Source: Escherichia coli (lineage in GTDB: Bacteria > Pseudomonadota > Gammaproteobacteria > Enterobacterales > Enterobacteriaceae). From it: a DNA stretch of 64,000 bases. Of this stretch, positions 48,930 to 61,165 are shown one piece after another. Position 1 is the stretch's first letter, and the number at the start of each line of letters is the position of its first letter. Made by a program: the position numbers and the translations under genes. Under the pieces are notes generated by a model. The model made no database searches, was not told where the DNA came from, and saw nothing but the letters and a program-made list of their open reading frames with translations. The stretch lies in the NCBI RefSeq assembly GCF_044324875.1, contig NZ_CP172185.1. The stretch is one strand, 5' to 3'.

Positions 48930-49058
48930 TAGGCCGGATAAGGCGTTCACGCCGCATCCGGCAATCAACGCCTGATGCGACGCTCGCGCGTCTTATCAGG
49001 CCTACAACTGTCGTTGACATGTAGCCGGATAAGGCGTTTACGCCGCATCCGGCAAAAT
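48930..49058. repeat. BIME: three REP palindromes in alternating orientation between uppP and cca
   Basis: GTAGGCCGGATAAGGCGTTCACGCCGCATCCGGCAATC / GCCTGATGCGACGCTCGCGCGTCTTATCAGGCCTAC / GTAGCCGGATAAGGCGTTTACGCCGCATCCGGCAAAAT. Confidence 0.8.
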
Positions 49059-55443: not shown

Positions 55444-56877
55444 ATGAAAGTAACGCTGCCAGAGTTTGAACGTGCAGGAGTGATGGTGGTTGGTGATGTG
55501 ATGCTGGATCGTTACTGGTACGGCCCCACCAGTCGTATCTCGCCGGAAGCGCCGGTGCCCGTGGTTAAAGTGAATACCATCGAAGAACGTCCGGGCGGCG
55601 CGGCTAACGTGGCGATGAATATCGCTTCTCTCGGTGCTAATGCACGCCTGGTCGGGTTGACGGGCATTGACGATGCAGCGCGCGCGCTGAGTAAATCTCT
55701 GGCCGACGTCAACGTCAAATGCGACTTCGTTTCTGTACCGACGCATCCGACCATCACCAAATTACGGGTACTTTCCCGCAACCAACAGCTGATCCGTCTG
55801 GATTTTGAAGAAGGTTTCGAAGGGGTTGATCCGCAGCCGCTGCACGAGCGGATTAATCAGGCGCTGAGTTCGATTGGCGCGCTGGTGCTCTCTGACTACG
55901 CGAAAGGTGCGCTGGCAAGCGTGCAGCAGATGATCCAACTGGCGCGTAAAGCGGGCGTTCCGGTGCTGATTGATCCAAAAGGCACCGATTTTGAGCGCTA
56001 CCGCGGCGCTACGCTGTTAACGCCGAATCTCTCGGAATTTGAAGCTGTTGTCGGTAAATGTAAGACCGAAGAAGAGATTGTTGAACGCGGCATGAAACTG
56101 ATTGCCGATTACGAACTCTCGGCTCTGTTAGTGACCCGTTCCGAACAGGGTATGTCGCTGCTGCAACCGGGCAAAACGCCGCTGCATATGCCAACTCAGG
56201 CGCAGGAAGTGTATGACGTTACCGGTGCGGGCGACACGGTGATTGGTGTCCTGGCGGCAACGCTGGCGGCGGGTAATTCGCTGGAAGAAGCCTGCTTCTT
56301 TGCTAATGCGGCGGCAGGCGTAGTGGTCGGCAAACTGGGGACATCCACGGTTTCGCCGATCGAGCTGGAAAACGCAGTACGTGGACGTGCAGATACCGGC
56401 TTTGGTGTGATGACCGAAGAGGAACTGAAGCTTGCTGTGGCGGCGGCGCGTAAACGCGGCGAAAAGGTGGTAATGACCAATGGCGTCTTTGACATCCTGC
56501 ACGCCGGGCACGTCTCTTATCTGGCAAATGCCCGTAAACTGGGTGACCGTTTGATTGTCGCCGTCAACAGCGATGCTTCCACCAAACGGCTGAAAGGGGA
56601 TTCCCGCCCCGTTAACCCTCTCGAGCAGCGTATGATTGTGCTGGGTGCACTGGAAGCGGTCGACTGGGTGGTGTCGTTTGAAGAAGACACGCCGCAGCGC
56701 CTGATCGCCGGGATCTTGCCAGACCTGCTGGTGAAAGGCGGCGACTATAAACCAGAAGAGATTGCCGGGAGTAAAGAAGTCTGGGCCAACGGTGGCGAAG
56801 TGTTGGTGCTCAACTTTGAAGACGGTTGCTCGACGACCAACATCATCAAGAAGATCCAACAGGATAAAAAAGGCTAA
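55444..56877 (+). CDS. hldE: Bifunctional D-glycero-beta-D-manno-heptose-7-phosphate kinase / heptose-1-phosphate adenylyltransferase HldE
   Basis: Track ORF 477 aa [37 protein letters not shown]... Confidence 0.9.
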
Positions 56878-56956
56878 CCGGAAAGCGGTTCACAGATCTC
56901 GCTTCGAACCTGGCAGGCCTATTGACGCTGTTTTTTTTCAACCTAAAGTAAAGGAA

Positions 56957-57100
56957 CAAGGGTGAGGGAGGATTTCTCCCCCCTCTGATTGGCTGTTAAT
57001 AAGCTGCGAAACTTACGAGTAACAACACAATCAGTATGATGACCAGCTTCATCATAACCCTTTCCTTATACAAGGCCCCTTCTTCGGGAGGGGCTTTCCC
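56957..57100 (+). ncRNA. sibE: Sib-family antisense sRNA (antitoxin), hldE-proximal copy; ends approximate
   Basis: Promoter TTGACG(56922)-N16-TAAAGT(56944); terminator GCCCCUUC-UUCG-GGAGGGGC + UUU at ~57076-57100; fully overlaps the opposite-strand ibs ORF; symbol assigned by position, from memory. Confidence 0.55.
56996..57055 (-). CDS. ibsE: Ibs-family 19-aa hydrophobic type I toxin peptide (MMKLVIILIVLLLVSFAAY)
   Basis: Reverse-strand ATGATGAAGCTGGTCATCATACTGATTGTGTTGTTACTCGTAAGTTTCGCAGCTTATTAA; too short for the ORF track; which ibs paralog is a positional guess. Confidence 0.65.
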   Translation of the reverse strand: MMKLVIILIVLLLVSFAAY

Positions 57101-57332
57101 GTTTCAGCCCCTTGCTGACTCCCCGATTGTTGATGAGCGCCAGACCCCGCGCAATGCTTTCCCTGATGCAGTTTTGCCTTCCCCGAGCCGTCACGCAAAA
57201 TGCTGCAACAGCCTGATCATTTGCACCTTTTAGCGGAACGCAGATATAAAAAATCCCCGGCTTTTTGGGCCAGGGATGTGGGATAGAGAAACCTTCTTGA
57301 CGCTGATTTTTTTTCAACCTAAAGTAAAGGAA

Positions 57333-57478
57333 CAAGGGTAAGGGAGGATTTCTCCCCCCTCTGAATTGGTTGTTAATAAGCCTGGAAACTTACTAGTAAC
57401 AACACAATCAGTATGATGACGAGCTTCATCATAACCCTTTCCTTCTATAAGGCCCCTTCTTCGGGAGGGGCTTTCCCG
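57333..57478 (+). ncRNA. sibD: Sib-family antisense sRNA (antitoxin), yqiK-proximal copy; ends approximate
   Basis: Promoter TTGACG(57297)-N17-TAAAGT(57320); same UUCG-loop terminator at ~57452-57478; symbol assigned by position, from memory. Confidence 0.55.
57373..57432 (-). CDS. ibsD: Ibs-family 19-aa hydrophobic type I toxin peptide (MMKLVIILIVLLLVSFQAY)
   Basis: Reverse-strand ATGATGAAGCTCGTCATCATACTGATTGTGTTGTTACTAGTAAGTTTCCAGGCTTATTAA; differs from copy 1 at residue 17 (A vs Q) and by synonymous changes. Confidence 0.65.
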   Translation of the reverse strand: MMKLVIILIVLLLVSFQAY

Positions 57479-57671
57479 TTTCAGCCCCCTGCTGACTCCC
57501 CGATTGTTGATGAGCGCCAGACCCCGCGCAACGCTTTCCCAGAGGCAGTTTTCCCTTCCCCGAGCGGTCACGCAAAATGCTGCAACAGCCTGATCATTTG
57601 CACCTTTTAGCGGAACGCAGATATAAAAAATCCCCGGCTTTTTGGGCCAGGGATTATTCATAGAAGAGGGT

Positions 57672-59333
57672 TTACTCTGTTTTTTCTTCGACGGGAGTTG
57701 TTGAGGTTAAGGGTGAAGTCAATGCCGCCAGCGAGCCGCCAGAAACACCGATTTCATTGAGCAAGGAGTCAATCAGTGGTGCCTGTGTGCGGTAAGAAAG
57801 GGCGGCAGACAATGCCTGTTCTGCCAGGTTTCCGCCACTAACGCTGCCTGATGCCGCATTCCCCGCAGCGCCACCTCGGTTTAATCCATCGACCTGAATA
57901 ATCTTGATGCCGTCAATGGACTTCATCGGCTCAACGGATTTCTCTATTACCGCAGGTAATGATTGTAATAGCGCCAGTTTGAATTTAAGGCTGGTTTGCT
58001 CGTCAGAAAGTACGTTGATAGCGTCGTTCAGCGCACGTTGCGCTTCTGCTTCCGCCAGACCCTTTTTACGCGTAGCTTCGGCTAACTCAACGATTGCCGC
58101 CGCCTGCATCTCTGCGGCTTCTTTTTCAGCTTTCGCCCGGACGGTCAGTTCGACTGCTTTGGTTTCCGCGTCCTGCGCGGCAGCGATTAGGGCAACTTGT
58201 TTAGCACGATCGGCTTCTGCGGTCTGGCGAGTGGTTTCAACGTTTTGCTGGGCGCTTACCGCTTCTGCAAGTGCAAGGTTGGCACGCGCTTCCGCTTGTG
58301 ACTGCTGTTCCGATTTGGCGGCAATAGCGATCGATTTCGTCTGGTTGGCGATTTCGGTGACCTGCTGCTGTTCGATCTCTTTAATGCGAACTTCACGTTC
58401 AGCTTCAACTTTTCTGGAACGGACGGCCTGTTCGCGGTCGATTTCCGTTTCCTGAATCTGTCGTTCAGCCAGAATTCGCGTCTGCTCTGCTTCCCGACGA
58501 CGCTCGGCCTCAAAAGCCGCAATTTTCGCATTCTGCTCAGCGGTACGGGTTTTAACCTGCTGCTCCTGCTCAAGCGTCATAAACGCTTCTTGTTGTTCAA
58601 TCTCCAGCTTGCGCGAAAGCGCATCACGGTTTTTCTCACGCACCGCAACTTCTACATCCTGTTCAACTTCGTTACGTTCGCGACGACGGCGCTCCGTCTC
58701 CTGCGTCAGCTTGGTTAAACCTTCGGCGTCAAAGGCGTTGTTAGGATTGAAATGTTCTTTCGACGTCTGGTTAAAGTTGGTAAGTGAAACGCTTTCCAGT
58801 TCCAGGCCGTTTTTCGACAGATCTTCAGCTACGGTATTTTGTACTCCCTGCACGAAGTTCTCGCGGGTATCCTGTAACTCATGCATGGTCATTTGTGCAG
58901 CTGTTGCACGGAGGGCATCGACAAATTTATCTTCAACCAACATACGTAAGTCTTCAGGCGACAGGGTGCGTTGTCCCAGCGTCTGGGCGGCGGTGGCAAT
59001 CCCTTCAACTGAAGGTTTTACCCGCACAAAGAAAGCGACCACGACATCGACGCGCATACGATCTTTCGTAATCAGGCTATCAATGGTTGAGCGGCTGACT
59101 TCCAGCTTCAGGGTATTCATATTGATGGGGATTATTTCATGAAAGATCGGCATCACGATTGCGCCACCGCTCATTACCACTTTTTGCCCACCTAAACCAG
59201 TACGAACAAAAGCTTGCTCTGCCGAAGCGCGACGATAGAGCCTGGCGAAAATAATTCCAATAATAAACAGAATGCATACGGCAATAATTGCGGTAAACAT
59301 CCAGGAGGGCACAGAATTAACAATATCATCCAT
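57672..59333 (-). CDS. yqiK: Flotillin-like SPFH/band-7 inner membrane protein YqiK with long Ala/Glu-rich coiled coil
   Basis: Track ORF 553 aa MDDIVNSVPSWMFTAIIAVCILFIIGIIFARLYRRASAEQAFVRTGLGGQKVVMSGG... Confidence 0.85.
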   Translation of the reverse strand: MDDIVNSVPSWMFTAIIAVCILFIIGIIFARLYRRASAEQAFVRTGLGGQKVVMSGGAIVMPIFHEIIPINMNTLKLEVSRSTIDSLITKDRMRVDVVVAFFVRVKPSVEGIATAAQTLGQRTLSPEDLRMLVEDKFVDALRATAAQMTMHELQDTRENFVQGVQNTVAEDLSKNGLELESVSLTNFNQTSKEHFNPNNAFDAEGLTKLTQETERRRRERNEVEQDVEVAVREKNRDALSRKLEIEQQEAFMTLEQEQQVKTRTAEQNAKIAAFEAERRREAEQTRILAERQIQETEIDREQAVRSRKVEAEREVRIKEIEQQQVTEIANQTKSIAIAAKSEQQSQAEARANLALAEAVSAQQNVETTRQTAEADRAKQVALIAAAQDAETKAVELTVRAKAEKEAAEMQAAAIVELAEATRKKGLAEAEAQRALNDAINVLSDEQTSLKFKLALLQSLPAVIEKSVEPMKSIDGIKIIQVDGLNRGGAAGNAASGSVSGGNLAEQALSAALSYRTQAPLIDSLLNEIGVSGGSLAALTSPLTSTTPVEEKTE

Positions 59334-60904: not shown

Positions 60905-61165
60905 AGTGAACCCGCTTATTCTCAGGGCGGGGCGAAATTCCCCACCGGCGGTAAATCAACTCAGTTGAAAGCCCGCGAGCGCTTTGGGTGCGAACTCAAA
61001 GGACAGCAGATCCGGTGTAATTCCGGGGCCGACGGTTAGAGTCCGGATGGGAGAGAGTAACGATTCTGTCGGGCATGGACCCGCTCACGTTATTTTGGCT
61101 ATATGCCGCCACTCCTAAGACTGCCCTGATTCTGGTAACCATAATTTTAGTGAGGTTTTTTTACC
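60905..61165 (+). promoter_or_regulatory. FMN riboswitch (RFN element) leader of ribB
   Basis: Conserved RFN segments AGGGCGGGGCGAAATTCCCCACCGGCGGTAAA ... AGCCCGCGAGCGC ... GGACAGCAGATCCGGTGTAATTCCGGGGCCGACGGTTAGAGTCCGGATGGGAGAGAG upstream of ribB ATG. Confidence 0.8.

Follow-up and report, generated by a model that had tools for sequence, protein, structure and literature searches.

Two Ibs/Sib toxin-antitoxin units with an uncommon allele pair at the hldE–yqiK site of Escherichia coli

In a 64,000-nucleotide stretch of Escherichia coli DNA (contig NZ_CP172185.1; hereafter the window), the gap between hldE and yqiK holds two tandem units, each with an ibs toxin open reading frame (ORF) on the minus strand and a Sib antitoxin RNA on the plus strand. 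They are read here, with a probability of about 0.93, as two working type I toxin-antitoxin modules of the Ibs/Sib family, each under its own control, at a conserved site. The site is the well-known hldE–yqiK Ibs/Sib locus of E. coli and is ordinary save for an uncommon allele pair; the system, the locus, and both peptides are already known and annotated. What is added is a correction at the allele level (an IbsD-type unit and a Gln17 unit, not D and E) and the mapping of a difference at toxin residue 17 to the discriminator of target recognition domain 1 (TRD1) of the Sib RNA.

Toxin and antitoxin genes of the two units

The features on which the reading rests are the following (positions are those of the window).

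56922-56949, plus strand: Sib-1 sigma-70 promoter, TTGACG-N16-TAAAGT (promoter scan)
56956-57100, plus strand: Sib-1 antitoxin RNA, ~142-145 nt (RF00113 match and fold)
56996-57055, minus strand: ibs-1 toxin ORF, MMKLVIILIVLLLVSFAAY and a stop codon, 19 codons (translation)
57002-57024, plus strand: Sib-1 TRD1, equivalent to SibC +46..+68 and identical to K-12 SibD (alignment; PMC2943612)
57055-57071, plus strand: Sib-1 equivalent of TRD2, K-12 SibE type (CCUUAUACAAGG; CCTTATACAAGG), single-stranded J1/7 over the ibs ribosome-binding site
57072-57097, plus strand: UUCG-loop terminator hairpin of Sib-1, 11-bp stem (fold)
57126-57154, minus strand: predicted ibs-1 promoter, -35 TTGCGC (57154-57149), 17-nt spacer, -10 AACAAT (57131-57126)
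57297-57325, plus strand: Sib-2 promoter, TTGACG-N17-TAAAGT (promoter scan)
57332-57477, plus strand: Sib-2 antitoxin RNA (RF00113 match and fold)
57373-57432, minus strand: ibs-2 toxin ORF, MMKLVIILIVLLLVSFQAY and a stop codon, 19 codons (translation; IbsD A17Q allele)
57379-57401, plus strand: Sib-2 TRD1, different from Sib-1 and SibD at 4 of 23 nt (alignment)
57449-57474, plus strand: UUCG-loop terminator hairpin of Sib-2, 11-bp stem (fold)
57503-57531, minus strand: predicted ibs-2 promoter, -10 AACAAT, -35 TTGCGC (by homology with unit 1)

Both 19-residue peptides translate exactly as an earlier note on this DNA had given them. The ibs-1 peptide is identical to K-12 IbsD at 19 of 19 residues and the ibs-2 peptide at 18 of 19, and both fit the Ibs form of 18-19 hydrophobic residues (MMxxVIILxxLLxxSFxxY). 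Both are labeled 'type I toxin-antitoxin system Ibs family toxin' in RefSeq (WP_001387081.1 for ibs-1 and WP_071528379.1 for ibs-2). The labels come from the chromosome of E. coli PK8275 (chicken, Pakistan), in which an 851-bp region is 100% identical to the window. Over the 3.85 kb compared, there is one difference, at position 57705 inside yqiK (G in the window, T in PK8275), so that the window would belong to a very near relative or to a separate assembly and not to this record itself. A scan with NCBIfam hidden Markov models, for which the peptides were padded to 25 residues by the upstream in-frame sequence, gave no Ibs match; the sole match was a sub-threshold one to RC1041_fam (12 bits against a cut-off of 90) and was considered irrelevant.

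On the plus strand, the Rfam family SIB_RNA (RF00113) matches unit 1 with 145.3 bits and unit 2 with 142.5 bits over the full model (1-147), against a gathering score of 56 bits, while the minus strand scores only 35-38 bits. This covariance-model search, which the earlier note had named as a check, recovers both units on the plus strand alone. The model reaches from the -35 hexamer to the J1/7 segment (56922-57070 in unit 1). Since it includes the promoter and excludes the terminator, the actual transcript is offset from the reported match. The +1A of Sib-1 was placed at 56956 by alignment to the 35-bp minimal promoter of K-12 sibD (PMC12956327) and that of Sib-2 at 57332. The 3′ end of Sib-1 would come after its UUCG hairpin. 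Both whole Sib RNAs fold much better than shuffled sequence (z-scores of -4.95 for Sib-1 and -4.67 for Sib-2). A permissive Rfam scan of 56850-57720 found, beyond SIB_RNA, only far sub-threshold matches (Arrc14, 28 against 99 bits; GadY, 19 against 45; mir-7; NsiR1), which were treated as chance.

The predicted TTGACG-N16/17-TAAAGT promoters were confirmed by a promoter scan, which found two such sites where 0.8 ± 0.9 are expected by shuffling. In Sib-2, the 36 nt from the -35 hexamer onward are exactly those of K-12 sibD. In Sib-1, a T8 run at 56931-56938 makes the spacer 16 nt long, while its closest relatives ('23a' and LSC52) have T9 and a spacer of 17 nt. This T8 may be a genuine homopolymer length variant or an assembly error common to PK8275. 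The UUCG-loop terminators were also verified and lie ~117-142 nt downstream of the assigned +1A. A simple terminator scan called neither of the two hairpins because the U-tract is interrupted (UUUCCCGUUU). The coordinates bear out the claim that the antisense RNA covers the toxin ORF completely: Sib-1 contains the ibs-1 ORF together with its ribosome-binding site (57056-57070), and Sib-2 is laid out alike.

The predicted ibs-1 promoter would start the mRNA at about 57117-57119, ~18 nt past the Sib 3′ end. This position fits the ibsD mRNA of K-12, which is ~163 nt in length and has an 18-nt 5′ overhang past Sib (PMC2943612). The predicted -10 hexamer aligns with the TACGAT -10 of the K-12 ibsC unit.

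How would such a unit work? The analysis itself shows the sequence anatomy, the family membership, the conservation of toxin frame and RNA structure, and the identities and frequencies of the alleles. The account below of transcription and repression, of toxicity, of the role of the TRDs, and of cleavage by RNase III is drawn from the literature on the K-12 paralogs and would apply to the window by analogy. In each unit, a weak minus-strand promoter would yield an ibs mRNA of ~160 nt, which would be translated into a hydrophobic membrane peptide of 19 residues whose production stops growth. A stronger, constitutive sigma-70 promoter on the plus strand would yield a structured Sib RNA of ~143 nt, complementary to the entire ibs ORF and its ribosome-binding site. 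The first contact between the two RNAs would be made through two exposed regions, TRD1 in the P5 loop (codons ~12-19) and TRD2 in the single-stranded J1/7 (the ribosome-binding site). Pairing would then spread, translation would be blocked, and the duplex would be cut by RNase III. Since the units differ chiefly in TRD1 and TRD2, including the codon-17 discriminator, each Sib would be expected to silence mainly its own toxin.

This scheme follows published work. The Sib RNAs are constitutive antisense RNAs of ~140 nt spanning the whole ibs ORF and the ribosome-binding site, and the Ibs proteins are toxic hydrophobic peptides of 18-19 residues (PMC2943612, in which the toxicity of the K-12 Ibs proteins is summarized). 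Sib–ibs duplexes are apparently processed by RNase III (PMC4147584). The minimal promoter of K-12 sibD is sufficient for transcription, and its +1A permits capping with nicotinamide adenine dinucleotide, which is enhanced by guanosine tetraphosphate (ppGpp) and DksA (PMC12956327). In a 2025 preprint, Salmonella IbsA is reported to inhibit the Fo sector of ATP synthase (bioRxiv 10.1101/2025.05.26.656083).

Codon 17, recognition domains, and the identity of the paralogs

The earlier note described the copies as differing by a nonsynonymous change at toxin residue 17 and by a few promoter-proximal substitutions. The residue-17 change is real, but the description is incomplete, for the ORFs differ at five bases rather than one. 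Codon 4 (CTG in ibs-1, CTC in ibs-2) and codon 13 (CTC/CTA) differ synonymously, and all three bases of codon 17 are changed (GCA/CAG; Ala/Gln). The substitutions do not lie near the promoter; the 10 positions at which Sib-1 and Sib-2 differ over ~145 nt are spread along the RNA, four of them in TRD1 and two in TRD2. These two domains make up 40 of the 145 nt and hold six of the 10 differences (hypergeometric P = 0.027).

In SibC, TRD1 (+46..+68) is the P5 loop and TRD2 (+99..+115) is the single-stranded J1/7; either can suffice, and SibC was retargeted to ibsD by changing G49CU51 to UGC or by a change in TRD2 (PMC2943612). The G49CU51 triplet is the antisense of ibsC codon 17 (AGC, Ser), and the UGC of SibD is that of GCA (Ala). 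In the window, the triplet is UGC in Sib-1 (57005-57007), the antisense of codon 17 GCA, and CUG in Sib-2 (57382-57384), the antisense of codon 17 CAG. Judging from these alignments, the residue-17 difference replaces all three bases of the TRD1 discriminator that had been defined by experiment. Since the codon-17 change sits on the very triplet swapped by Han et al. (2010), this triplet probably sets the pairing specificity of the Sib and ibs RNAs.

Do the two modules act separately? Repression by Sib RNAs is cognate-specific with the exception of ibsA (Han et al. 2010, PMC2943612). The TRD1 divergence between Sib-1 and Sib-2 (the triplet and one more base) is of the same size as that between SibC and SibD, and thus I infer, by analogy, that the two modules of the window are largely independent. 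Alternatively, since both units are IbsD-like, both Sib RNAs may cross-repress both mRNAs, which would make the locus one redundant module with a double antitoxin dose. The peptides are indeed only one residue apart, the Sib RNAs are close to each other over their length, the TRD2 sequences differ at 2 nt with an identical stretch of 23 nt immediately upstream, and either TRD alone can suffice for repression (Han et al., PMC2943612). However, the TRD1 sequences disagree at 4 of 23 nt, among them all three of the discriminator triplet, and SibC and SibD, which have an equal number and kind of TRD1 difference, discriminate both in vivo and in vitro. K-12 SibD and SibE likewise share this stretch ahead of TRD2, and yet Sib RNAs repress only their cognate ibs mRNAs, ibsA excepted (PMC2943612). 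In addition, the TRD1 triplet differs between the tandem partners in nine of nine two-unit E. coli genomes (the window included) as well as in Escherichia albertii and Escherichia sp. E1V33. Such redundancy is therefore regarded as unlikely.

Several points nevertheless weigh against two functional and independently regulated modules. All function ascribed to these two alleles is extrapolated from the K-12 paralogs. The predicted ibs promoters are weak matches that were missed by a consensus promoter scan, and the 16-nt spacer due to T8 could alter the level of Sib-1. Some cross-repression through TRD2 is possible, given the two differences there and the identity of +90..+112 (23 nt).

The earlier note rightly recognized the sibD/sibE–ibsD/ibsE locus between hldE and yqiK. 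It assigned the paralog names, with a hedge, by position, and these are wrong here by sequence. In a K-12-like record, ibsE (MMKLVIILVVLLLLSFPTY) is next to hldE, and the gene next to yqiK encodes IbsD (WP_001387081.1, MMKLVIILIVLLLVSFAAY). In the window, the IbsD-identical peptide is in the hldE-proximal slot and the A17Q variant is in the yqiK-proximal slot. An IbsE-type unit is absent from the window: neither unit has the IbsE peptide (..VVLLLLSFPTY) or an IbsE-type TRD1, and the E-like features of unit 1 are limited to TRD2 and position. Compared with K-12 IbsD/SibD, unit 1 has the identical peptide and TRD1 and an E-type TRD2, while unit 2 has the identical promoter, a TRD2 that is 1 nt off (CUAU in Sib-2, CUGU in SibD), and a different TRD1 and codon 17. 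By this comparison, both window units are mosaics.

Distribution, conservation, and boundaries

The locus was found in 5425 of 5426 complete E. coli genomes. The full two-unit haplotype of the window is present in 123 of them (~2-3%), its hldE-proximal arrangement in 139, and the 88-nt Gln17 core, at 99% identity or more, in 229. The strain thus belongs to a minority haplotype with a mosaic unit in the 'E' slot and a Gln17 unit in the 'D' slot. The slot contents were typed in 16 loci (the window and 15 genomes), a sample that was not randomly drawn.

Pro17 (IbsE type) and Ala17 (IbsD type): the most frequent pattern in this sample
Ala17 and Gln17: the window and two other genomes
Gln17 and His17: one genome
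Single unit: Ala17, Pro17, Gln17, or Ala17-Thr18

By codon 17 and the TRD1 triplet, there are at least five Ibs/Sib specificity classes in E. coli (Pro, Ala, Gln, His, and Ala-Thr18), and four TRD2 variants occur in several combinations with them. Cryptic Escherichia clades and Escherichia whittamii have the Gln17 class too, which is therefore old. I tentatively suggest, at somewhat less than even odds, that hldE–yqiK is a cassette locus of one or two slots. Classes would move between the slots by gene conversion or unequal crossing-over, and selection would keep the discriminator triplets of co-resident units different. Residue 17 would then be driven by RNA-RNA specificity and not by protein function, and the Gln17 of the window would be a sixth specificity. 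Further Ibs alleles seen at the site are a tandem pair (MMKFVIILIVLLLVSFQAY and MMKFVIILIVLLLISFHAY) and a single-unit allele (MMKLVIILIVLLLVSFATY); the loci concerned are L080 (E. coli 24A16CRGN010), L081, L086, and L044 (Escherichia sp. E1V33).

For relatives, one genome per species was scanned with the signature ATGATGA-N7-CATCATRACCCTT, a pattern spanning the ribosome-binding site, the ATGATG start, and the P6 hairpin. It yielded 72 units at 68 loci in ~10 enterobacterial genera (Escherichia, Citrobacter, Salmonella, Kluyvera, Pseudocitrobacter, Phytobacter, Hafnia, Chimaeribacter, Enterobacter, and Raoultella). An 18-19-codon ORF with a common end point is kept in 68 of the 72 units, with ~60 distinct peptides; the stop codon or the frame is lost in four, and IbsB-type units differ through an in-frame codon deletion. 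Over codons 8-19, which lie outside the search pattern, the entropy is 0.56, 0.24, and 0.97 for codon positions 1, 2, and 3, respectively, which is a coding signature. The most variable codons are 4 and 17. The peptide frame, on whose conservation in relatives the earlier note had let its claim depend, is thus conserved. In an RNAalifold analysis of the Sib strand, the P2 hairpin has compensatory changes (AU to GC in 23 sequences and GC to CG in six), and so has the terminator stem; the invariance of P6 in the alignment is a product of the search pattern, in which that hairpin is fixed. Citrobacter, Kluyvera, Phytobacter, and Salmonella arizonae have a single unit next to hldE. In E. albertii, a Pro17 unit and an IbsD-identical unit are in tandem at a spacing of 376 bp, and Escherichia sp. 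E1V33 has Gln17 and His17 units at the same spacing.

One or both units of the window might be decaying relics without a working toxin or antitoxin. The four disrupted units among the 72 would agree with this, as would the single unit in about one third of E. coli genomes (nine of 29 evenly spaced full-length matches) and the reported dispensability of SibA/ibsA (PMC2943612). However, promoter, +1A, all Sib helices, terminator, ribosome-binding site, start and stop codons, and a full-length ORF are preserved in both window units, and other E. coli lineages carry exactly these two peptides. Decay is thus very unlikely.

Even less credible is a main product of another kind, such as a 65-codon plus-strand ORF starting at the AUGAUGA of P6 (57036-57233 and 57413-57610). 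This ORF is intact in 19 sampled D/E-type units, including some from E. albertii and a cryptic Escherichia clade. However, its frame is broken in both K-12 units, in one E. albertii unit, and in one unit of Escherichia sp. E1V33. Its variable sites number 9, 9, and 14 by codon position and therefore give no coding signature. It lacks a ribosome-binding site, the P6 stem sequesters its start codon, it would have to read through the Sib terminator, and homology with the sibA, sibB, and sibC units stops ~20 nt past that terminator. It was rejected as a gene, being broken in both K-12 units and showing no third-position bias. The indels that break it also fall inside an 89-codon and a 115-codon minus-strand ORF in the repeat.

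The two modules of the Ibs/Sib family occupy repeat units whose limits and surroundings are as follows.

55444-56877, plus strand: hldE
56922-57296: repeat unit 1, hldE-proximal, K-12 ibsE/sibE slot (direct repeat families D1-D3, unit alignment)
57253-57277, minus strand: intrinsic terminator hairpin and U-run, a duplicated copy of the yqiK terminator between the ibs genes (terminator scan, fold)
57297-57671: repeat unit 2, yqiK-proximal, K-12 ibsD/sibD slot (repeats, unit alignment)
57629-57655, minus strand: yqiK intrinsic terminator, in repeat unit 2 (terminator scan; fold z-score -3.65)
57671-57687: partial third copy of the unit start, TTTACTCTGTTTTTTCT, 14 of 17 nt, overlapping the yqiK stop codon (family D3, alignment)
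57672-59333, minus strand: yqiK

The two head-to-tail units of ~376 bp each fill the 794-bp gap completely. A repeat search found two direct-repeat blocks, one of 290 nt at 95% identity and one of 58 nt at 98%, whose copies start 376-377 bp apart. The high-identity portion of each unit is ~356-358 nt (56922-57277 and 57297-57654) and is followed by a divergent linker of ~19 nt, so that the unit of ~360 bp and the period of 377 bp given earlier are accurate. Over the full length, the units are 92.3% identical with gaps counted (29 differences). The sibA, sibB, and sibC units are homologous only from the Sib -35 hexamer to ~20 nt beyond the Sib terminator; the remaining ~180 bp is specific to the D/E pair and holds the predicted ibs promoter and a minus-strand terminator.

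A 17-nt motif, TTGACGCTG-T8, occurs three times in register, at 56922, at 57297, and more weakly at 57671. The last is the partial third copy, which lies in exact register (spacings of 375 and 374) and marks the boundary of the tandem duplication. The resulting r-S-r-S-r′ arrangement is what would remain after short homologies had mediated a tandem duplication. That the window pair arose by recent doubling of a single unit was rejected because the units are just 92% identical, each is nearer to alleles of other genomes than to its partner, and a tandem pair is already present in E. albertii.

The yqiK terminator belongs to the repeat unit, and therefore a second copy lies between the two ibs genes. 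This copy would shield ibs-1 from minus-strand read-through out of yqiK and ibs-2. The terminator scan also found a minus-strand hairpin with a T-run (AACCGCTTTCCGGTT AGCCTTTTTT) at 56876-56890, overlapping the hldE stop codon, which could end read-through from ibs-1 before it enters hldE as antisense.

Elsewhere in the window, there are an Rfam naRNA4 match (nucleoid-associated non-coding RNA, a REP-type element) at 48932-49002 on the plus strand (83 bits against a gathering score of 59.5) and a single tRNA-Met gene (CAT anticodon) at 36521-36596 on the minus strand. Rfam also gave a flavin mononucleotide (FMN) riboswitch aptamer at 60914-61062 on the plus strand (120.9 bits); the gene downstream of it is presumably ribB.

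Significance and comparison with known systems

As a discovery, these units add little, because the Ibs/Sib family, the exact locus, and both peptides have been described and annotated. For annotation, a correction follows: paralog names are not transferable by position at hldE–yqiK, since alleles move between slots and the number of copies is not constant. A minor point on mechanism is that the amino-acid difference flagged earlier sits on the experimentally defined three-base TRD1 discriminator of Sib–ibs pairing. The natural variation at the locus could thus serve as a ready panel for how cis-antisense RNAs separate paralogous targets.

The SibD/IbsD system of K-12 was reportedly described by Fozo et al. 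in 2008 and was treated further by Han et al. (2010). The window shares with it the intergenic site, the unit-1 peptide and TRD1, and the 36-nt promoter sequence of unit 2. In contrast, unit 1 lies on the hldE side, its TRD2 is of the SibE type, and its promoter is a variant, while unit 2 differs in TRD1 (4 of 23 nt) and has Gln17 instead of Ala17. With K-12 SibE/IbsE, unit 1 has in common the chromosomal position, TRD2 (CCUUAUACAAGG), and the downstream sequence, but its peptide differs from IbsE at 4 of 19 residues, and its TRD1 reads AGCUGCG..ACGAG where that of SibE reads AGUCGGG..AACAG. SibA/IbsA belongs to the same family, and unit 2 shares with it Gln17 (CAG) and the start of TRD1 (AGCCUGGAA). 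However, SibA/IbsA is at another locus (yegL-mdtA), TRD1 and the peptide are otherwise different, and sibA has a +1G where both window units have A at the aligned position.

The Ldr/Rdl (LDR repeats) and Zor/Orz systems of E. coli are likewise tandem chromosomal type I loci with a small hydrophobic toxin and a small RNA antitoxin, duplicated within one intergenic region and with copy-specific recognition (PMC2887945, PMC3919570). Their sequences are unrelated to Sib, and their antitoxins overlap the 5′ untranslated region or act in trans, whereas a Sib RNA spans the whole toxin ORF.

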